From a virus: 27,204 nt of DNA. The translations under genes and the position numbers were made by a program. The notes under the pieces are model-generated. The model searched no databases. It saw only the letters and a program-made list of their open reading frames with translations, and had not been told where the DNA came from. The stretch lies in the UHGV virus genome UHGV-0165622. The stretch is one strand, 5' to 3'. Position 1 is the stretch's first letter; each line of letters opens with the position of its first letter. Positions 3,230 to 15,496 of this stretch are shown here, one piece after another.

Positions 3230-3408
3230 GACTGCGGGTGCTTGAGGCTATCTGTCTCAGGCATGAACACCAAAAGGCAGATAGAGAAAAGCCCCAGTTA
3301 ACATTACGCGTCCTGCAAGACGCTTAACATTAATCTGAGGCCATATCTATGCGACACATAGAGATTAGCCTCTTACGGACCGAAAGGTCAAGGAGAAGCA
3401 GGCTATGA
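3230..3408 (+). promoter_or_regulatory. hok mRNA leader with mok-like upstream ORF (3349-3408) and probable antisense Sok target region
   Basis: 20-codon upstream ORF whose TGA overlaps the hok ATG (ctATGAag); inverted repeats in the leader (tatctgtctc / gcagatagag) fit hok/sok fold-back regulation. Confidence 0.4.
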
Positions 3409-3725: not shown

Positions 3726-4376
3726 ATGAATGAAAATCAGTTAGCTCCTTGTTGGGAATTTCAACCTTATCTTGCTGAAAACTATGTTCGCCACTTGTTG
3801 GCGGAGATCGCTAACGTACTTGAGCAGCTGTACTATCATAAGCACGCATTAGACAGCAACTGGTCTGAAGGTGTAAGGGCTTATGATTGGGTCAGAAATC
3901 ATCTTATTCAAAATGAAGATGCAATTCCTGGCCTTGAGATGATTTCCAAGGGGTTGGACTATGTAGTTGCTTTAAATAAAGTTCCGCTACAATTTACCAA
4001 AGATTGCATTAATAACCCCAAAAAGAAACATCGTCTGCGTCGAAATAAAGTAGAGTATGAGCAGCTCTCATTGTTTGGTGATGTTGAGGCTGAGCAAGAT
4101 ATTACATGGCGAGTCATAGCTGAGCCTTTTTTATCCGAAGAGGGCGATGGTGAATTAGAGTCCACACTGCCTCGTTGGGAGGTAGCTCTTGTTGGATTTA
4201 ATACTTATGGTGCTCAGATTAGTATAGTTTCTCATCAATCTACAGCATCGATGCCGCTTATGCCTCTTGATTATAACACACTCCCTGACGAAGCGGAGAT
4301 TAATAAGGTGCCTCTTCGTCGGCGTACGAAGGATAAAGATTTGGATGTGAGCAGTGATGGAACATCAGGTGAATAA
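3726..4376 (+). CDS. Unknown 216-aa protein, upstream partner of the HTH/Zn-peptidase gene (candidate toxin or effector)
   Basis: ORF with no motif I recognise; low-GC codon usage; 3' end overlaps the downstream gene by about 20 nt. Confidence 0.7.
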   Translation: MNENQLAPCWEFQPYLAENYVRHLLAEIANVLEQLYYHKHALDSNWSEGVRAYDWVRNHLIQNEDAIPGLEMISKGLDYVVALNKVPLQFTKDCINNPKKKHRLRRNKVEYEQLSLFGDVEAEQDITWRVIAEPFLSEEGDGELESTLPRWEVALVGFNTYGAQISIVSHQSTASMPLMPLDYNTLPDEAEINKVPLRRRTKDKDLDVSSDGTSGE

Positions 4377-5460
4377 CTTCACTGAGTATCGGGGTGATAA
4401 GCTCAAACTAGCGAGAATGGCTGTTGGGCTTTCTTGTGAAGAGTTAGCCGAAAAAATTGGCAAGACAAAGCAATTCGTTAGCAAACTGGAGAAGGGGTGC
4501 AGGCCATCGGAGCAATGTCTTGAGTTAATATCTTCAGCGCTTATGATTAAGTCCAGTTTTCTTTTTACTGAACGAAAATACGCTCTGGAAAGTGATGTCT
4601 GCCATTTTCGGAGTAAGAAGTCCAGGACTCAAACGCTGACTAATAGTGTATTGGCCAGGGCTGAGATTCTTAATATTATAATTTCTGCTGTTGAAGGTGA
4701 AATCGAATTTCCTGACGTTAACATACCGGAGCACCCAGGGGCTGAATTACTTACTCCGAATGATATTGAGCGAGTGGCAGAAGATTGTCGCCGTGCCTGG
4801 AATTTAGGTCTTGGCCCTATATCATCAATGGTTAAATTGGCGGAGAGTTTAGGGGTAATCGTTGCGCATGTTACGGGAGTCGATGATCGTGTTGATGCTT
4901 TTACTGTTCACAATAACAGGCCTGTTATCATCAGGAACAATGTTAAAAAAAGCATATGTAGATTTCGCTCTGATTTAGGTCATGAATTAGGGCATTTAGT
5001 AATGCATGAGGGCATAACGACAGGTGATAAACTTACGGAATCACAAGCCGATCACTTTTCGAGCGCCTTATTAGTTCCCAGGTTATCTTTCATTAAAGAA
5101 TTTCCACGAATACGAGGTAAGCAATTCGACTGGAATGCTCTGGTTGAATTTAAACTTAGATGGAAAATCAGCCTTAAAATGTGTATTTATCGAGCCAGCG
5201 CATTAGGCTTATTGACCCAGGAACAGGCAAGAACTGGCTATATGCATCTTAATTCCAGAGGGTATACGAGAGTTGAACCTGGTGATGAACTTTTGCGCCC
5301 TGAAGAACCCGGCATGCTGGCCGAGGCGATTGAAATGCTGGATGATGCAACCTGGCTAAGAATTCTTATGAAAACTGGCTTGAGCCAAGATTTAATTCGT
5401 GAGTTGTTCTCCATCAACAGACCTATTACAAATCCAAGAAATATTTTCCAGATTGTTTGA
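4354..5460 (+). CDS. HTH_XRE plus ImmA/IrrE-family (COG2856, M78-like) zinc metallopeptidase fusion protein
   Basis: N-terminal XRE helix-turn-helix (LSCEELAEKIGKTKQFVSKLEKGCRPS); HEXXH zinc motif HELGH at about 4979-4993 with downstream Glu; 368 aa; GTG/ATG start overlapping the upstream gene. Confidence 0.85.
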   Translation: MMEHQVNNFTEYRGDKLKLARMAVGLSCEELAEKIGKTKQFVSKLEKGCRPSEQCLELISSALMIKSSFLFTERKYALESDVCHFRSKKSRTQTLTNSVLARAEILNIIISAVEGEIEFPDVNIPEHPGAELLTPNDIERVAEDCRRAWNLGLGPISSMVKLAESLGVIVAHVTGVDDRVDAFTVHNNRPVIIRNNVKKSICRFRSDLGHELGHLVMHEGITTGDKLTESQADHFSSALLVPRLSFIKEFPRIRGKQFDWNALVEFKLRWKISLKMCIYRASALGLLTQEQARTGYMHLNSRGYTRVEPGDELLRPEEPGMLAEAIEMLDDATWLRILMKTGLSQDLIRELFSINRPITNPRNIFQIV

Positions 5461-7273: not shown

Positions 7274-7633
7274 ATGCTCATAGATTTGGTTTTACCTTAC
7301 CCGCCGACGGTGAACACTTACTGGCGACGCCGTGGCAGCACATATTTTATCTCGGAGGAGGGAAAGCGTTATCGCCGGGCTGTGGCGCTTATTGTTCGCC
7401 AGCAGCGGCTGAAATTAAGCCTGTCCGGAAGGCTGGCGATAAAGGTGATTGCAGAGCCACCGGATAAGCGTCGTCGCGACCTGGACAATATCCTGAAAGC
7501 ACCGCTGGATGCGCTGACGCATGCGGGAGTGTTAATGGACGATGAGCAGTTTGATGAAATCAATATTGTAGGTGGTCAGCCAGTATCTGGTGGACGGCTG
7601 GGTGTGAAGATTTACAAAATTGAGAGTGAGTGA
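7274..7633 (+). CDS. rusA: RusA-family Holliday junction resolvase
   Basis: 119 aa; conserved RusA residues (PPTVNTYW, RRRDLDN, DALT..GV..DD) and AAAGAGG Shine-Dalgarno. Confidence 0.85.
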   Translation: MLIDLVLPYPPTVNTYWRRRGSTYFISEEGKRYRRAVALIVRQQRLKLSLSGRLAIKVIAEPPDKRRRDLDNILKAPLDALTHAGVLMDDEQFDEINIVGGQPVSGGRLGVKIYKIESE

Positions 7634-8196
7634 GCGTAAATATGATATATCCGGAAATTACAGGCAAAAGCGGCGAGCATTTACGTCTAAAAACGCTGGA
7701 AGCAGTCTGGATCCAGGGGAAATTACGGATGTGGGGGCGGTGGTCGTATATTGGCGGCGGTAAGACGGGAAATATGTTCAACCAATTACTGACCTCTAAA
7801 AAGCTGACAAAAACGGCAATTAACGAGGCGCTCCGGAGGATGAAAAAAGCTGGTCTGGACAAACCTGAACTTGAGGCTTTTTTGCGGGATATGATCAACG
7901 GCAATCAAAAAAGCTGGCTGGCACATTGTACCGATTCAGAGGCGTTAATAATCGACAGGGTTATTGGTGAAGTCCTGGCAGGCTATCCCGGGCTGCTCAA
8001 TGTCCTGAGTCAGCGTTATGTGGGGCGGGGGATGACTAAGCGCAAAATGGCTGAACTGCTGAATGATGCACACCCGGAATGGAGTTTAAGAACCTGTGAA
8101 AGACGCATTGAGCATTGGCTAAAGGTGGCAGAATTTATTTTGTACAAACCAATGGTTATGGCTTTTGGTATAGAGAAAAAAGTTATTGCTTTTTGA
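7630..8196 (+). CDS. Putative late-gene antiterminator Q-like protein
   Basis: 188-aa ORF in the canonical Q position (after rusA, before the tR'-like terminator and lysis region); loose similarity to phage-21/DLP12-type Q from memory. Confidence 0.55.
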   Translation: MSVNMIYPEITGKSGEHLRLKTLEAVWIQGKLRMWGRWSYIGGGKTGNMFNQLLTSKKLTKTAINEALRRMKKAGLDKPELEAFLRDMINGNQKSWLAHCTDSEALIIDRVIGEVLAGYPGLLNVLSQRYVGRGMTKRKMAELLNDAHPEWSLRTCERRIEHWLKVAEFILYKPMVMAFGIEKKVIAF

Positions 8197-8298: not shown

Positions 8299-8420
8299 TG
8301 CCTGAAAAACGGCACAGAACATTAAACGCGCTGGTGGTTGCGAATACCGGTCTTTCAGCTTGCTGGCTTTTCCGACAAGAGTTATTGGTATGTTACGTTA
8401 ACCAGAAAAGGGAAAAAGAC

Positions 8421-8618
8421 ATGCTAAAACAGCAGGATATGACCGAAACCGCCAGAGTGGTGTTTAATGAGTTAAGCGTCACCGAACCGGCGACAGTCGG
8501 GGAGATTGCACAGAATACTTACCTTTCACGCGAACGCTGCCAGTTAATACTGACCCAGCTTGTTATGGCGGGTCTGGCAGACTATCAGTTTGGTTGTTAC
8601 AGACACCTTCAGTCCTGA
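8421..8618 (+). CDS. Small putative winged-helix DNA-binding protein
   Basis: 65 aa; HTH-like segment TVGEIAQNTYLSRERCQLILTQLVMAGL; followed by hairpin ccttcag-tcc-tgaagg and a T-run. Confidence 0.4.
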   Translation: MLKQQDMTETARVVFNELSVTEPATVGEIAQNTYLSRERCQLILTQLVMAGLADYQFGCYRHLQS

Positions 8619-8987
8619 AGGCTTTTTTATTTGTGGTAAATGGGCGGCTGGTGGGTGTGGTGGTTGTTGCTTTCCCGTTGCTGAAAAAGAAAACGCCAGA
8701 CTGTTAGCCGGGTATCAGTTATCTGGAGAAATTTTTAAATACCTCACAATTCAGGCGGTTGACTGTTGTCTGGTTTGCGGGGAGTTTGTTAAAAGAAACT
8801 GGCATGGTGAATCCCCCTGTGCGGAGGGGCAATCAGCGAGTAGGTATATGGGATAATCGCGGATTCAGGTGCTGGTACTGAATTCACCGGGAGGCACCCG
8901 GCACCATGCAATGGCACATAGCGCCACTCTCCAGCCCCTCTCCGGAGGGGCTGTTTATATTGATTTTGTCAGATGTGAGTAAACTCC

Positions 8988-9323
8988 TTATGGACTTTGT
9001 TGTTTTAGTCCATAAGGACATATTTGCAGAGTGCAACGGTTATTAAAGCATTCATTCAATACGTTATCTGTATTTGTAGGACATTCCTGGCTGTTTTTGA
9101 TTAAATTCCAGAATGTTTTATTGAATGGTACTACGTTGTAAATGGTTAAAGGTAGCACTTTGTTATTGAGCATGATACCTGTGTGAGTCAGTGTAAATAT
9201 ACTTTCAGGAGGTAAGAAAGCATCCGATTGATACCAGATTATTAATTTTATTTTACTCCATATGACTGAAAAAGATATTCCGCATGATGGCTGGATAACT
9301 GTATCAATCACAATCCACTTCAT
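8988..9323 (-). CDS. Hypothetical Cys-containing protein in an AT-rich island, opposite strand to the late operon
   Basis: 111-aa ORF; good Shine-Dalgarno (AAGGAAA) upstream of the ATG on the minus strand; AT-rich composition unlike flanking phage genes; an 11-bp perfect inverted repeat (ccttatggact/agtccataagg) lies at its 3' end. Confidence 0.5.
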
Positions 9324-9568
9324 TTAGTTTCCTTGTTTATGTCTTGCTGGTGATGTTCTGAAAAGTATAAATGATATTTTTGAATGTAAACCATAGAGCA
9401 GAATTATTTTTCTGATGTTGTTTATTGTTTATTTAAATGCAGGGTGGTTTATATCTCGTCTTGTAGTTTATCCATGCATATCTGCTTGATGATGAGGTTT
9501 TTATTTAAGGTATGGTTTTGTGTTTTTTCTGTATTACATGTCAGGTATTTTAAAGAATTATTTTTCAG

Positions 9569-11545
9569 ATGGTGGAAAGAACCATGGCATTTAAACACTA
9601 TGATGTTGTCAGGGCGGCATCGCCGTCAGACCTTGCGAAACGACTGACACAAAAACTGAAGGAGGGGTGGCAGCCATTTGGCAGTCCGGTGGCCATCACG
9701 CCTTATACCCTGATGCAGGCCATTGCGGCGGAAGGTGATGTCACCACACCTGTGGTGGTGAAGCCGTCGGATGGAGAAGGCGCAGTTATCAGCACCACCA
9801 GCAACCCGGAGTATTACTTTGTTGTTGCCCTGGCCGGGCAGTCAAACGGTATGGCGTATGGTGAAGGGCTTCCGCTGCCGGAGACATATGACCGTCCGGA
9901 CCCGCGTATTAAACAGCTGGCGCGTCGCAGCACTGTCACGCCGGGTGGTGCGTCCTGTAACTACAATGACATTATTCCTGCGGACCACTGCCTGCATGAT
10001 GTTCAGGATTTGAGTAAGTTTTCACACCCGAAAGCCAGCGCAGCTCAGTATGGATGCGTGGGGCAGGGATTACATATCGCGAAGAAATTGTTGCCGTTTA
10101 TTCCGGCGAATGCCGGTATTCTTCTGGTTCCGTGCTGCCGTGGTGGTTCTGCATTTTTGGCGGGCGATGAAGGTACCTTCAGCGAATCCACCGGCGCAAG
10201 CGAGACCTCGGCACGCTGGGGTGTTGATAAGCCACTGTACAAGGACCTGCTTACCCGTACTCAGGCCGCACTGAAGGCCAACCCTAAAAATATTCTGCTT
10301 GCAGTGGTCTGGATGCAGGGCGAGTTTGATTTGAAACAGGGTGCATACGCCACTCAGCCGGGGCTGTTTGATTCCATGGTGGAAAAATATCGTTCTGACC
10401 TGTCGGAATTCGGAGGTCAGTGTCTCGGGGGCTCTCCGTCATCGGTTCCCTGGATTTGTGGCGACACGACCTACTACTGGAAGCAGACTTATTCTTCGCA
10501 ATACGATGCGGTGTATGGTGCATACAAGACGAAATCCGCAAAAAAAATCTTCTTTGTGCCGTTTATGACGGATGAAAACGGGCGAAATGTGGGTACCAAC
10601 GAGCCGTCAGAAGATCCGGATGTTGCGGATATTGGGTATTACGGAGCCGGTGGTCGAACGGACGCCAAAACCTGGACGACGGCCGACCGTAAAACGCATT
10701 TTGGATCATGGGCACGTCGTGGGATTATTTCCGACCGTCTGGCAACGGCGATTCTTGTGCATGCCGGGAGAAACGCTGAATTCATTACCGGAAAACAGCC
10801 TGATACGGTGAAGCCCACCGGACCTTCCGGTGAAGGTACGGAGAGAGAGCCGGAAGCCCCGGTCAGTAACCGAACCCTGATGAGTCTGCTGGCGTCCGGC
10901 GAAGACCTGGCATCACAGGGCTGGCGCTATTATCACAAACCGGCGAGCGGAGACAATGTTAACAAAAACATTGCTGAAGCGGTGGTCAGTGATGCGGGGG
11001 CTACGGGAGGTAAGGCCCTGCAACTGAATAAACCGGAAAACCACATCTGGTTTCTGGAGCATGATGCAGCCGGACAGGGAGTGGAGTTACTGAAGAAGGG
11101 GGGACGTGTGAGCGTACGGTTTAAGTTGCCGGGTTCACTGGTGCCGAATCAGTTTGCCCTGGGCATTTACTGGCAGTTGTCGTCCCTGCCGGAGGGAGTG
11201 ACGCTGGCAGAGGAAGGCAACGACATGCTGATGTCCTTCTTCCTGCAGACGGATGCGACGAACCTGAACGCGATGCACCACAAGAAGCCGAATGCGAAGC
11301 TGGATACGTTCGGGGTCTTTGATAACGGATGGCACACACTGGCTTTTGAGTTTGCCGGAAACAACAGCATTCAGGTGACGCCGGTACTGGATGAGAAACG
11401 GGGGACGCCGTTCACACTGGTGAAATCTCCGGCATCAGGGGCGGCGGACAAACTGCAACTGACAGGCATATCAAAGGCGGCGACATATACGCTGCTGATT
11501 GACAGTGTGAAGGTGGAAGTGAACAACGCGGACATCGCGGCATGA
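9569..11545 (+). CDS. nanS-p: Prophage sialate O-acetylesterase NanS-p-type protein (N-terminal DUF1737, SGNH/GQSN esterase core)
   Basis: 658 aa; N-terminus MAFKHYDVVRAASPSDLAKRL; esterase motif ALAGQSNGMAYGEG; sits where Stx phages carry the homologous gene between stx and the lysis cassette. Confidence 0.8.
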   Translation: MVERTMAFKHYDVVRAASPSDLAKRLTQKLKEGWQPFGSPVAITPYTLMQAIAAEGDVTTPVVVKPSDGEGAVISTTSNPEYYFVVALAGQSNGMAYGEGLPLPETYDRPDPRIKQLARRSTVTPGGASCNYNDIIPADHCLHDVQDLSKFSHPKASAAQYGCVGQGLHIAKKLLPFIPANAGILLVPCCRGGSAFLAGDEGTFSESTGASETSARWGVDKPLYKDLLTRTQAALKANPKNILLAVVWMQGEFDLKQGAYATQPGLFDSMVEKYRSDLSEFGGQCLGGSPSSVPWICGDTTYYWKQTYSSQYDAVYGAYKTKSAKKIFFVPFMTDENGRNVGTNEPSEDPDVADIGYYGAGGRTDAKTWTTADRKTHFGSWARRGIISDRLATAILVHAGRNAEFITGKQPDTVKPTGPSGEGTEREPEAPVSNRTLMSLLASGEDLASQGWRYYHKPASGDNVNKNIAEAVVSDAGATGGKALQLNKPENHIWFLEHDAAGQGVELLKKGGRVSVRFKLPGSLVPNQFALGIYWQLSSLPEGVTLAEEGNDMLMSFFLQTDATNLNAMHHKKPNAKLDTFGVFDNGWHTLAFEFAGNNSIQVTPVLDEKRGTPFTLVKSPASGAADKLQLTGISKAATYTLLIDSVKVEVNNADIAA

Positions 11546-11901
11546 TAAAAAAAGCCGCCAGCGGTAGGAATGGAAGCTGGCGGAGGTAATCCCAATGGAG
11601 AATGTAAAGAAAAGATGCTTTCGACATCAATCATTTCTAAATGAAAACAGTTCTCATTGTCAACCATAACGGTAAGAAATTATGACATTTATTCATCAGG
11701 TAATGCTGTACTTCTGTATGGCAGTCTGTGTTATGTATCTTCTTTCGGGTGGGTACAGGGCAGTGCGCGATTTCTGGCGCAGGCAGATTGATAAAAGGGC
11801 CGCTGAGAGAATCAGCGCCAGTCAGTCAGCCGGAAGCAAACCCGAAGATCCGCTCATTCCGTAGTCACTTTCTTGACAACACCTTTCAACGAGAAAATCC
11901 C

Positions 11902-12147
11902 ATGTCAGAAATCACATCCCTGGTCACTGCTGAGGCAGTGAAGGAAGTCCTGCGCTCTGAAGAAGTCCTGAGCGCACTGAAACAGAAACTCCGCCAGAAC
12001 CTTGAGTCGCGTCTTGATGCAGAAGTGGATGCCATTCTGGATGAGCTGCTGGGCGTACCAGCGGTTCCGGAGCCGGAAGGTATCGCGGGTGACGGGAGTG
12101 CTTCAGATGGCGGTGAACCCACACCTGACAGCGACATGATGATGTAA
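11902..12147 (+). CDS. Hypothetical acidic protein upstream of the holin
   Basis: 82-aa [25 protein letters not shown]... Confidence 0.45.
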
Positions 12148-12223
12148 GCCTGCGCAAGGGACCATCGGTGTGTGCCGGTGGTCTTTATATTGTTGTGAGC
12201 TTCCGGATAACGGGAGACGGGGT

Positions 12224-12439
12224 ATGTACCAGATGGAAAAAATCACAACAGGTGTGTCATACACCACGTCAGCGGTGGGAACGGGCTACTGGTTCCTGCA
12301 GTTGCTGGACAGGGTTTCCCCGTCTCAGTGGGCGGCAATAGGCGTGCTGGGGAGTCTGCTGTTTGGGCTGCTGACGTACCTGACTAACCTGTATTTCAAA
12401 ATCAAAGAGGACCGGCGTAAGGCGGCGCGGGGAGAGTAA
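12224..12439 (+). CDS. Holin (class II, dual-start MYQM), Stx-phage S type
   Basis: 71 aa; two hydrophobic helices, charged C-terminus [13 protein letters not shown]; dual Met start; GGGAGACGGGG Shine-Dalgarno. Confidence 0.85.
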
Positions 12440-12440
12440 A

Positions 12441-13334
12441 GTGATGAATAAAAAATATGAACTGGTTGTTAAGGGGATAAATAATTACGGGGATAAGGTT
12501 ACTGTTACTGTGAAGCCGGAAGGTGACGGGCAAGCGTCGCTGTTGTTGCCAGATGTGGCGATTAGTCTTGACCGTACTGAAGGTGCCACGCTGGAGTTTT
12601 ACGAAGCTGAGGCGAAAAAGCAGGCGAAGCAGTTTTTCATGGATGTTGCTGCCGGGTTATGTGAATGGAACGAACCGTTGCCGGAAAAGCGCCCCGTAAT
12701 TTTAGAGGCGCAGGATGTGTTGATAACCTACAAAGGAAAGCTACCGGGAAGAATTACTTGTTCTCTGAAGATGCCGCCGTCAACACTGCGGTCAGAAAAA
12801 GATGATGTTGAATCACGTATTGAAAAACTGGAGAGCTACGTCGTTGAGCTGAATAAGAAATGGTCGATATTGGTGCCTTCTGGCGATGAAAAGCAGTTTG
12901 CTGCGTTTGACGATTATTGTCGGAAAGTGATGAGCAGAAATCTCGCAGAGTGTTTCAGTATTCATAATGATAATTTCAGTGACCCGGAATGGGAGTGTAA
13001 CCGGCCATCCTTTGTTGTATCCGGTGATGCTGGGAAAATAACCATCTCAGAAAATGGGAAAGTAACACCTCCATCGCACCAGCACAGTGAGGAGCTCATT
13101 GAATTTGCCATTGATTACCTGAAGAACAATAAAAAGCAGGGGCTGATGAAGCGCGTTGGCCGTTGCATGGGATATCTTCAGGTAGCCGCTGAGATTGAAG
13201 CGCTGGCCAGTGGTGCTGATAAGGATGCAATTGTGCGGGAGGCTCTTCTTCGTGATTTTAATACTCCACCCTTTAAAAAAGTGCCGGCTTACTGGCTTCA
13301 TCCGGGGCTGACTTATCTTAAAGTGCGTATTTAG
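12441..13334 (+). CDS. Unknown 297-aa protein inserted between holin and endolysin
   Basis: ORF starts 2 nt after the holin stop with GGGGAGAG Shine-Dalgarno and ends 36 nt before the endolysin; no recognisable domain; lower GC than neighbours. Confidence 0.7.
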   Translation: MMNKKYELVVKGINNYGDKVTVTVKPEGDGQASLLLPDVAISLDRTEGATLEFYEAEAKKQAKQFFMDVAAGLCEWNEPLPEKRPVILEAQDVLITYKGKLPGRITCSLKMPPSTLRSEKDDVESRIEKLESYVVELNKKWSILVPSGDEKQFAAFDDYCRKVMSRNLAECFSIHNDNFSDPEWECNRPSFVVSGDAGKITISENGKVTPPSHQHSEELIEFAIDYLKNNKKQGLMKRVGRCMGYLQVAAEIEALASGADKDAIVREALLRDFNTPPFKKVPAYWLHPGLTYLKVRI

Positions 13335-13370
13335 TGGGCCAGGGACAGCGGCTGAATATTTAATATATCC

Positions 13371-13904
13371 ATGAACACCAAAATCAAATACGGCCTGTCG
13401 GCTGCCGTTCTGGCGCTGATTGCCGCTGGTGCGCCTGCGCCTGACATTCTCGACCAGTTTCTGGATGAAAAGGAAGGCAACCACACCACGGCATACCGTG
13501 ATGGTGCAGGTATCTGGACCATCTGCCGTGGTGCCATCATGGTGGATGGCAAACCTGTCGTTCCGGGCATGAAGTTGTCGAAGGAAAAATGCGACCAGGT
13601 TAACGCCATTGAGCGTGATAAGGCGCTGGCATGGGTGGAGAAAAACATCAAAGTGCCGCTGACCGAACCCCAGAAAGCGGGGATCGCGTCATTCTGTCCG
13701 TACAACATTGGTCCCGGTAAGTGTTTCCCGTCGACGTTTTACAGACGAATTAATGCTGGTGATCGAAAAGGTGCCTGCGAAGCGATTCGCTGGTGGATTA
13801 AGGACGGTGGCAGAGACTGCCGTATTCGTTCAAACAACTGTTACGGTCAGGTATCCCGTCGTGACCAGGAGAGCGCGCTGGCGTGCTGGGGTATCGACAG
13901 ATAA
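13371..13904 (+). CDS. SAR endolysin (phage lysozyme R, T4-lysozyme fold)
   Basis: 177 aa; N-terminal signal-anchor-release segment GLSAAVLALIAAGAPAP; catalytic region EGNHTTAYRDGAGIWTICRG typical of P21/933W R. Confidence 0.9.
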   Translation: MNTKIKYGLSAAVLALIAAGAPAPDILDQFLDEKEGNHTTAYRDGAGIWTICRGAIMVDGKPVVPGMKLSKEKCDQVNAIERDKALAWVEKNIKVPLTEPQKAGIASFCPYNIGPGKCFPSTFYRRINAGDRKGACEAIRWWIKDGGRDCRIRSNNCYGQVSRRDQESALACWGIDR

Positions 13905-14060
13905 GCAGAATATTTTGCTGAAAAATGAGGAATGGCCACGCGGGCGGATAACACGAAATCCTGCGAACTGGCGAAACGTAAGTGAATAAAAGTAAAAACC
14001 CCGTTTGTTGGCACCAAGCGAGGTTTTGTGTTTCTGACCTTGAGTAAGGCAAGGGAGAAC

Positions 14061-14243
14061 ATGGCGAAGTGTAAACGAATTCTGTTGAGGTTGACTATGA
14101 AAAATGGCCTTGAACTGAAAGCGCCTGTAACTGATGACATCAGCAGAGCACTGGCTTTTGCCATTAAGTGGGTGGCGGTCGGTGTTGCTGTGTCCCCGAT
14201 GCTGTATGGGCTGGCAAAACTGGTCATTGCGTTGAAATCGTGA
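14061..14243 (+). CDS. Small hypothetical protein between R and Rz
   Basis: 60-aa ORF with AGGGAGA Shine-Dalgarno; hydrophobic C-terminus. Confidence 0.3.
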
Positions 14244-14257
14244 AGGGAGGATTAAGC

Positions 14258-14389
14258 ATGTCAGACAAACTCATAACGCTGGCGAAGATCCTCTGTGTAA
14301 TTGTCGGCATTTCATTTTCACTAATGCTGGTTGCTCTTTTTCTTTCCATGGCCTGGATGATGTTGTCTTCGTCGGGGTTGCTGGGGTGA
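14258..14389 (+). CDS. Small hydrophobic peptide (43 aa, not in ORF track)
   Basis: Strong Shine-Dalgarno GAAGGGAGG 7 nt upstream of ATG; single predicted transmembrane helix; stop overlaps Rz start. Confidence 0.3.
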
Positions 14390-14859
14390 ACATAAACCGA
14401 ATGCTTTCCGCGTTTATCGTTATTCTGCTGGTGGCCTGTGGTGCGCTGTGGATGGCAACAGACCATTACCGTGATAACGCGATTACCTACAAAGCGCAGC
14501 GCGATAACAAAGCCAGTGAACTGAAGCTGGCGAACGCAACCATTACTGATATGCAGGTGCGCCAGCGCGATGTTGCTGCGCTCGATGCAAAATACTCGAG
14601 GGAATTAGCCGATGCGAGAGCTGAAAATGAAACTCTTCGCGCTGACGTTGCCGCTGGTCGTAAGCGCCTGCGGATCAACGCCACCTGTCCAGGCTCCGTG
14701 CGTGAAGCCCCCACCACCTCCGGCGTGGATAATGCAACCGGCCCCCAACTGGCAGACACCGTTACACGGGATTATTTCACCCTCAGAGAGCGGCTGATGA
14801 CGATGCACAAGCAACTGGAAGGGGCACAGGACTATATCCGCACTCAGTGCCTGAAATAA
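14386..14859 (+). CDS. Rz inner-membrane spanin (i-spanin)
   Basis: 157 aa; N-terminal TM helix then [15 protein letters not shown] coiled-coil region typical of Rz; GTG start. Confidence 0.8.
14627..14797 (+). CDS. Rz1 outer-membrane lipoprotein spanin (o-spanin), embedded in the +1 frame of Rz
   Basis: Lipobox LVVSAC followed by a proline-rich segment (PPPPPAW), fully nested within Rz. Confidence 0.7.
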
Positions 14860-15169
14860 GTTTTGTTGATGCGCCGTATCGTCGCTATATTCCCTCATTA
14901 ACAGAGACCGCAGCCCGACAGGGAGACTCCTCTGCGCGAGTGTGCGGGGATAATTAAAAACGATGCACACCGGGTTTTTACCGCGTTAATGATTCGCGGG
15001 TTTATCCCGGTGCGATGGTGGAAGAAACAGGAAGCTGTATTACAGAAAGTGCTACTACTGTATCCCGATGCGATGTATGTAATGTGAGTCAGATAATGGC
15101 ACAGGATGTGGTGATGTGGCAGTCTGGAACACAGGATATATTGTCAGAATAAGACCCGTAGGAATAAAA

Positions 15170-15496
15170 ATGAAAAGACGCCTTTTACTACTTTTTCTGT
15201 TATCTGTCCTGGCAGTGGGATGCTCGCAGCAAAAAGCTGATGAGCCCCGGCAATTAGTGACGGTGTATCCACGATATCCGGAATATGCTGCAGCAAATTA
15301 TATCAAGGGGCTGGTTGAGGTTAAGTTCGATATTGGTGCTGATGGGACTGTGACACGGATCGTTTTTCTCCGCTCAGAGCCTCATAATTTGTTTCGTGAT
15401 GAAGTGGTGAAGGCCATGGCGAAATGGCGATTTGAAAAGAATCGCCCCTGTCAGGGAGTGAAGAGACAATTTATCTTTACGCCGTCACGTCCTTGA
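15170..15496 (+). CDS. Lipoprotein with TonB C-terminal-like domain (moron in the bor slot)
   Basis: 108 aa; signal peptide with lipobox LAVGC; YPRYPEYAAANYIKGLVEVKFDIGADGTV resembles the TonB C-terminal domain; Shine-Dalgarno AGGA upstream. Confidence 0.6.
   Translation: MKRRLLLLFLLSVLAVGCSQQKADEPRQLVTVYPRYPEYAAANYIKGLVEVKFDIGADGTVTRIVFLRSEPHNLFRDEVVKAMAKWRFEKNRPCQGVKRQFIFTPSRP

Follow-up and report, generated by a model that had tools for sequence, protein, structure and literature searches.

A long-form YdfR/DUF1327 gene, very probably accessory cargo in a hypervariable slot between the holin and endolysin genes of Escherichia coli lambdoid prophages

What is the role of a 297-aa ORF that lies between a holin gene and an endolysin gene? 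The window, that is, the whole 27,204-nt stretch of DNA analysed here (UHGV virus genome UHGV-0165622), is a lambdoid prophage of E. coli, and a program-made ORF list places such an ORF in its lysis cassette at 12441..13334 on the + strand. The initial annotation regarded the gene as unrecognised, as an insertion into an otherwise adjacent holin-endolysin pair and as a possible late-expressed moron. [quoted passage not shown]

The gene order of the window is an Ead/Ea22 gene, a hok/sok module, an HTH + M78 regulator, DUF968, RusA and the antiterminator Q (7630-8196), followed by a low-GC stretch with STnc100, a NanS-p-like esterase gene (9569-11545), DUF826 and the lysis cassette, and then by terminase, portal, protease and capsid genes. 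The Rfam model of the sok antitoxin RNA (RF01794) matched 3236-3407 (+ strand) with 106.7 bits against a gathering score of 59, pointing to a module of the hok/sok toxin-antitoxin type in the early region. The regulator is a 368-aa protein (4354-5460, + strand) with HTH_3 and Peptidase_M78 (IrrE-like) domains, an architecture typical of stress-responsive prophage regulators. Within the low-GC stretch (approximately 8300-9500), a full-length match to the sRNA STnc100 was found at 8773-8962 (+ strand; RF02076, 132 bits). This segment has a GC content of 31-33% and lies between Q and the esterase gene, which is the position of stx in Stx phages. A hairpin with a 13-bp stem followed by a T-rich run (12157-12186, + strand), located between DUF826 and the holin gene approximately 40 nt upstream of the holin start, looks like a putative terminator on the late transcript. 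Just past Rz/Rz1, a 126-aa ORF with a TonB_C domain (15116-15496, + strand), which is also found in L006 and L008, occupies the position of bor in lambda.

The ORF list counts 297 aa from GTG 12441, which starts 2 nt past the holin stop codon TAA (12437-12439), and the gene has its own Shine-Dalgarno sequence, as described in the initial annotation. ATG 12444 is immediately next to this GTG. Because the N-termini of all database homologues read M-[NKT]-[KQ]-x-YEL and an upstream GTG is missing from the related loci examined, ATG 12444 is probably the conserved start; the protein then has 296 aa. Residue numbers of the modules below are counted from this ATG. Since the Shine-Dalgarno sequence is inside the 3' end of the holin gene and the start is 4 nt past the holin stop, translation of the gene is probably coupled to that of the holin. 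On the downstream side, R starts 36 nt past the stop of the gene. Coordinates are collected in Table 1.

Table 1. The lysis cassette of the window and the modules of the YdfR-family protein
Feature	Position	Strand	Evidence and remarks
S21-type class II holin (pinholin type), 71 aa	12224..12439	+	PF04971, E 7.2e-33; PHROG holin families; 80% identity to K-12 EssQ
Shine-Dalgarno sequence GGAG within the last holin codons	12431..12434	+	9 nt before ATG 12444, 6 nt before GTG 12441
Long-form YdfR-family gene, 296 aa from ATG	12444..13334	+	PF07041, PHROG 1085, RefSeq; identical copy in L028
Module A, aa 1-75, DUF1327 core, predicted three beta strands then a long helix	12444..12668	+	PF07041; AF2 pLDDT 59-82
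Module B, aa 76-117, basic segment (pI 9.5), predicted unstructured, PEKRPVILEAQDVLITYKGKLPGRITCSLKMPPSTLRSEK	12669..12794	+	
Module CD, aa 118-179, two long helices, hairpin or coiled coil	12795..12980	+	AF2
Module E, aa 180-296, 117-aa orphan C-terminal domain, three-strand meander and helices	12981..13331	+	Alignment; pLDDT 83-95
SAR-type endolysin R (phage lysozyme), 177 aa, hydrophobic N-terminus LSAAVLALIAAGAPAPDIL	13371..13904	+	PF00959, E 1e-24
Rz i-spanin, with Rz1 o-spanin nested at 14612-14797	14386..14859	+	PF03245, E 2e-47; nested 61-aa lipoprotein-like ORF; end of lysis cassette

The encoded protein differs from the products of its neighbours. Its highest Kyte-Doolittle 19-residue window is 0.75, whereas those of the holin, endolysin and Rz are 1.7-2.5, and hydropathy analysis found no TM segment, amphipathic membrane anchor or signal peptide. 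The pI of the protein is 5.95. The gene has a GC content of 46.2% (GC3 46.8%) in contrast to 54-55% (GC3 59-71%) for holin, R and Rz. Both the lack of a TM segment and the low GC had already been pointed out in the initial annotation, whose factual points are all borne out. In a consensus scan, which is weak evidence, no + strand sigma-70-like promoter match was found in 11500-15200, and the terminator search at the gene gave only a weak hairpin at 13293-13310, inside the ORF. The plentiful homologues, together with dN/dS of 0.17-0.46 over the C-terminal domain, indicate that the ORF is beyond chance.

The gene is, however, not unrecognised. Pfam DUF1327 (PF07041) matched residues 2-101 with 136.9 bits (E 2.7e-40, profile positions 1-88 of 93), where the gathering score is 25 bits, and PHROG 1085 (function unknown) matched the product end to end (E 6.8e-190, residues 2-297 to profile positions 1-296 of 296). 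The homology search that had been proposed thus led to a catalogued family. RefSeq entries of the same DNA (99.8% identity) name a class II holin, a lysozyme and, between them, a 'YdfR family protein'; hundreds of E. coli genomes carry the gene under this name. BLASTP against K-12 YdfR (103 aa) gave 47% identity over residues 1-74 (E 6e-21). Among 5426 complete E. coli genomes, at least 80% of the region 12100-14000 was found in 552, ST131 strains among them, and any match to the region in 4347. The protein matched no lysis-category PHROG or Pfam family and no NCBIfam family. The PADLOC-DB 2.0 defence HMMs gave no credible match, the best being PbeC (E 0.018, 11.3 bits over 60 residues), and profile and structure searches detected no enzymatic, nucleic-acid-sensing, adhesin or toxin domain. 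Our literature search on the YdfR family, and on ydfR with essQ, yielded nothing functional and a single passing mention of DUF1327; the gene between holin and endolysin is undiscussed in the 2021 survey of Stx-phage lysis cassettes.

Is the gene a part of the lysis machinery or an optional occupant of the cassette? We surveyed 80 IMG/VR loci encoding a holin at least 97% identical to that of the window, together with phage records, and measured the gap between the stop of the holin gene and the start of R; the counts refer to 79 loci. In 12 loci the slot is empty, with a gap of 1-4 nt, and R starts at the base where the YdfR-family gene starts elsewhere. DUF1327 only was found in 19 loci (358-418 nt), modules CD and E only in 8 (596-603 nt), modules A and B followed by a reverse-strand ORF in 11 (691-692 nt) and intermediate forms in 4 (768-868 nt). 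The form found in the window accounts for 9 loci (931 nt, 97-100% identical), and the other 16 (958-1316 nt) have larger mosaics, some of them with a reverse-strand ORF. The occupied slots show at least eight architectures (short, long, split, permuted and frameshifted) with a common start base after the holin. The idea of an insertion into an otherwise adjacent holin-endolysin pair is therefore upheld, and the survey of gene spacing suggested in the initial annotation revealed that the gene is polymorphic for presence and absence between loci.

Since the same holin and R evidently function without the occupant, a core or cognate role in lysis is argued against and the moron idea is supported. 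We rejected an essential or cognate partner of the holin on the basis of the 12 empty slots beside holins at least 97% identical, and the comparison of these loci indicates that the YdfR-family gene is optional cargo and not a core lysis gene. An antiholin should co-occur obligatorily with its cognate holin, and it should have a TM segment or membrane tether or be akin to a holin or antiholin; the empty slots, the hydropathy maximum of 0.75 and the lack of a lysis-family match all speak otherwise. The initial annotation would have been overturned if the gene had proved to be a lysis component, for example an antiholin, that is both conserved and characterised. This is not the case: conservation was borne out, but the family is uncharacterised and the cassette can do without it. 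As for a moron, presence and absence between near-identical flanks and a distinct base composition were both observed, whereas the consensus scan, weak evidence in itself, did not reveal a promoter and terminator of its own for expression in the prophage. The empty slots, the lack of a + strand promoter match in 11500-15200, the soluble product and the low GC fit a late-expressed moron, as first proposed.

Other parts of the cassette vary as well. Many occupied slots contain reverse-strand ORFs of 95-116 aa next to the module E gene (L001 2585-2899, L004 2498-2812, L005 4902-5189 and L090 4651-4941, all on the - strand); that of L005 has no Pfam match, and the window is without one. Two short ORFs overlap in the gap between R and Rz (13905-14385): 14028-14243 encodes 71 aa, and 14168-14389 encodes 73 aa with a hydrophobic C-terminal half. 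At this position related phages have ant, a DNA methyltransferase gene or nothing, and the R-Rz gap forms another variable slot of the cassette.

The modules of Table 1 emerged from the mapping of 120 homologues by BLAST and from an alignment of 31 sequences. Module A is homologous to residues 1-74 of K-12 YdfR, the part with reported RNase E binding. Some members of the family have module B, and others have a different segment in its place. The GC minimum of the gene (39%) coincides with module CD, the helices of which correspond to 2-29 and 32-53 of the AF2 model mf3e1af5c5fda (pLDDT 69-83). In module E, the alignment revealed the motif G-R-x-M-G-x-L-Q-x-A-A-E ... P-P-F-K ... W-x-x-P-G-x-x-Y-L-K with the invariant residues G-R, L-Q, A, P-x-K, W, P and Y, which suggest no apparent catalytic site. 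Members sharing module A have lengths of 103, 114, 176, 183, 211, 268, 287, 296, 305, 329 and 333 aa and diverge by whole-module swaps and indels. Modules CD and E also exist without module A as stand-alone proteins of 185 and 213 aa. In L005-L008, the order is holin, the 213-aa CD+E gene, a 75-aa DUF1327 gene, a reverse-strand ORF and endolysin, and the DUF1327 identity of the 75-aa protein is supported by Pfam. Because DUF1327 and CD+E are fused in one order and are separate adjacent genes in the swapped order, this gene fusion and fission of the Rosetta-stone type argues that the two work together.

The full-length AF2 model was poor (pLDDT 51), with a head of three strands and a helix at pLDDT 59-82. 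Prediction of residues 118-296 from a 23-sequence alignment reached a pLDDT of 80.5 and gave two long helices, a three-strand meander and four helices. The structure search called for in the initial annotation was carried out with Foldseek, and nothing was found at E < 0.1 either in BFVD or, with the full-length model, in PDB. Resemblances to dsRBD, NTF2 and cystatin-like folds were weak and not significant, and we did not adopt them. Sequence searches of PDB with full-length and module E profiles gave chance matches only (all E >= 0.03), and a Pfam scan of 12 diverse module E sequences gave nothing below E 0.005. Module E is an orphan, uncatalogued domain. The C-terminal DFDNPPFKK motif slightly resembles the FtsZ C-terminal peptide, but with 3 identical residues out of 10 the similarity is too weak for a claim.

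Selection on the gene was evaluated by the Nei-Gojobori method, each homologue being compared to the window gene. With dS reaching 0.4-2, module E showed a dN/dS of 0.17-0.46 and module CD one of 0.14-0.44. For module A it was approximately 0.3 against distant alleles and 0.64-1.1 against close ones, and the changes cluster in residues 14-38, where two allelic types are exchanged. These values point to purifying selection on modules E and CD of the encoded protein and to a fast-evolving head. Many genomes contain the intact 296-aa form with 97-100% identity. The long-form copies of L014 (2873-3864), L066 (4220-5012) and L034 (3134-3610) are frameshifted or truncated and consist of two pieces (163 and 135 aa, or 140 and 130 aa) or of a remnant of 158 aa without a start. 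Because such frameshifted copies exist, the gene decays in some prophages and is lost without obvious penalty.

The family has a narrow taxonomic range. When residues 115-296 were searched exhaustively by HMMER against 1.84 billion cluster representatives, only 25 clusters were obtained. The distant clusters (35-46% identity) repeat the layout of a beta-rich head at the N-terminus followed by a coiled coil and module E, and the heads compare with DUF1327 at an hhalign probability of 88% (E 3e-6). The module E profile search found proteins of E. coli, Shigella and Salmonella only, none with a Pfam domain; the Salmonella homologues, at 30-40% identity, keep the invariant motifs. When one genome per species was searched for 185,579 species, only three loci gave a match, all of them in Escherichia or Shigella. 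Among 50,697 phage records, the DUF1327 head was found in 100 and module E in only 5, and every one of these phages is a lambdoid or Stx phage of E. coli. The module E gene of a Salmonella diarizonae prophage has Q on one side and an HP1-type holin on the other, and lies outside the holin-lysin interval. Because this copy precedes the holin, module E is tied to the late region and not strictly to the S-R slot. The same Salmonella gene adjoins a reverse-strand DUF1883 gene.

The sole experimental lead on the function of the YdfR family is a paper of 2026 on the K-12 protein (PMC13232886). It points to RNase E binding, which was absent from the options of the initial annotation (lysis timing, action on the host or on another phage, release at lysis). 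In that work, YdfR came up in a bacterial two-hybrid (BACTH) screen, and its first 72 residues are sufficient for binding to Rne 1-597 and, more weakly, to RNase G. Strep-tagged YdfR was co-eluted with Rne 1-598 and was purified together with nucleic acid (RNA) resistant to DNase. Overproduction of YdfR alters few transcripts and leaves growth unaffected (PMC13232886).

The gene is very probably read from the Q-dependent late transcript, and its product is very probably a soluble cytoplasmic protein of three modules, namely the DUF1327 domain, a helical hairpin or coiled coil and the orphan C-terminal domain. Our preferred reading of its action, which we put forward as a tentative possibility, is that the protein, made late, may work in the cytoplasm as an adaptor that targets RNase E or RNA. 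Late in infection, the DUF1327 domain may dock on the catalytic N-terminal half of host RNase E, on RNA or on both. The helical region, module CD, would make the protein oligomeric, and module E would provide a second contact. Through these contacts, the protein would act on RNA decay or processing, as an adaptor or as a modulator, during late and lysis gene expression. Here we infer that RNase E binding is conserved at 47% identity and relevant to RNA decay in late infection. However, this binding has been reported for the 103-aa K-12 protein only, which is 47% identical over the N-domain and is without modules B-E. Further points against the adaptor are the few transcript changes and normal growth upon YdfR overproduction (PMC13232886), the poor full-length AF2 model with a pLDDT of 51 and the existence of frameshifted copies. 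Nor is there a reason apparent here for placing an RNase E modulator in a lysis cassette. A bolder form, which we consider doubtful, is that long-form YdfR represents a new class of phage RNase E adaptors. Its head would sit on the catalytic half of membrane-bound RNase E and module E would recruit RNA or a membrane component such as the lysis proteins, coupling RNA decay or late-mRNA processing to lysis timing and to release of toxin or cargo, with module shuffling as an adaptation to host variation.

The position of the gene raises the question of whether its product modulates lysis timing. Like a cytoplasmic antiholin co-factor, it could bind the basic C-tail of the pinholin or the membrane-tethered SAR endolysin and thereby delay or sharpen triggering. 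The gene lies inside the cassette, with its start 4 nt past the holin stop and its Shine-Dalgarno sequence within the holin gene, and the family is almost always found beside class II holin and lysozyme pairs. In addition, the Keio ydfR deletion is among the hits of a screen for envelope leakiness with the chromogenic substrate CPRG (PMC3879167 supplements). This hit, however, may be a polar effect, as the kan cassette is directly upstream of the lysozyme gene rrrQ, and we treated it as uninformative. Modulation of lysis timing seems unlikely to us: in 12 of the 79 loci, R and a holin at least 97% identical do their work with no occupant between them, the protein is without a TM segment or amphipathic membrane anchor and matches no PHROG or Pfam lysis family, and the Salmonella module E gene is upstream of an HP1-type holin. 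Overproduction of YdfR also had no effect on growth (PMC13232886). The YdfR-family protein is not part of the envelope-breaking machinery.

Rapid module shuffling could be explained if the gene were engaged in phage-host or phage-phage conflict as an anti-defence, exclusion or defence factor. This is consistent with the hypervariability of the slot (presence and absence, domain swaps, fission and permutation), with the raised dN/dS of 0.64-1.1 in DUF1327 between close relatives and its changes in residues 14-38, with the narrow taxonomic range and with the low GC. Nevertheless, such a role is rather improbable, because the best PADLOC match (E 0.018, 11 bits) is not meaningful, no promoter for expression in the lysogen was found, late expression is unusual among anti-defence genes and no enzymatic or nucleic-acid-sensing domain was detected. 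The frameshifted or split copies in L014, L066 and L034, the frequently empty slot and the near absence of a phenotype upon YdfR overexpression (PMC13232886) would also be expected of a decaying or neutral passenger, that is, recombination debris in a hot spot with no current function. The dN/dS of 0.17-0.46 in module E and 0.14-0.44 in module CD at dS up to 0.4-2, the many intact 296-aa copies at 97-100% identity and the persistence of the invariant motifs in Salmonella homologues at 30-40% identity make a passenger quite improbable. Finally, the protein could be cargo that is freed at lysis and acts extracellularly, comparable to the neighbouring NanS-p esterase and to the toxin of Stx phages; its gene shares the late cargo region with the NanS-p-like esterase gene (9569-11545). 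It has no signal peptide and therefore its release would depend on lysis. We regard this as very improbable, because the searches detected neither an enzyme domain nor an adhesin or toxin domain, the N-domain of K-12 YdfR, to which that of the window protein is homologous, has a cytoplasmic enzyme as its partner (PMC13232886) and a coiled-coil adaptor architecture is unlike that of an extracellular effector.

YdfR/DUF1327 was already catalogued, though uncharacterised, and occupies the same place even in K-12; it is not a new kind of system and will not surprise specialists. This study adds the survey of the slot with its variants, the module map, the link between DUF1327 and the orphan domain through fusion, fission and permutation, and the narrow taxonomic range. 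In lambdoid prophages, those with Shiga toxin included, the family lies in the lysis cassette beside the region for toxin and cargo. Most complete E. coli genomes contain the region in some form, and approximately 10% contain the long form. If the protein modulates RNase E or lysis timing, it could influence the amount of toxin or phage released on induction. The position in Stx-type prophages and the RNase E lead make the family worth a targeted experiment.

Several phage systems can be compared with the window gene. T4 Srd, T7 gp0.7 and phiKZ Dip are phage modulators of RNase E and are early or middle gene products; T4 Srd reportedly binds the N-terminal half of RNase E. They would resemble the window protein, as phage proteins acting on RNase E, only if the RNase E lead holds, and they differ in that the window gene is in a late lysis cassette and that no similarity of sequence or fold was detected. 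T4 RIII, P1 LydB and the S21 dual-start (68/71) antiholin are cytoplasmic or accessory lysis regulators. The points of similarity are that the window gene adjoins a holin gene and is co-expressed with it, and that its product is soluble like T4 RIII. However, no homology of the window protein to these three was found, the window gene is dispensable for the same holin/endolysin pair, and S21-type holins already encode their own antiholin via dual starts. The lambdoid late-region morons bor, lom, stx and nanS-p share with the window gene the character of optional, compositionally distinct cargo of the late unit. Classic morons are frequently equipped with a promoter and terminator of their own and expressed in the lysogen, whereas no + strand promoter match was found for the window gene.

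The closest counterparts are in Stx phages and in K-12. BP-4795 ORF47 (114 aa) and the 'DUF1327 containing protein' of PhiR5_1 (211 aa) share the holin, the insertion point and the DUF1327 head of the window. Orf5 of Stx2 phage 86 (268 aa) and the protein of Stx2_95 (329 aa) share these and also module E, at 82-93% identity. The occupants of the slot in Stx phages differ from the window protein in the middle modules and in length, and several are followed by a reverse-strand ORF, which is absent in the window. In the Qin prophage of K-12 MG1655, ydfR (b1555) shows the layout seen in the window: it sits between the holin gene essQ, whose product is 80% identical to the window holin, and rrrQ, and it starts a few bases past the holin stop. 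RNase E binding has been reported only for this protein (PMC13232886). K-12 YdfR ends after one helix, whereas the window protein shares its N-domain and adds a basic linker, a helical hairpin and the 117-aa orphan domain.
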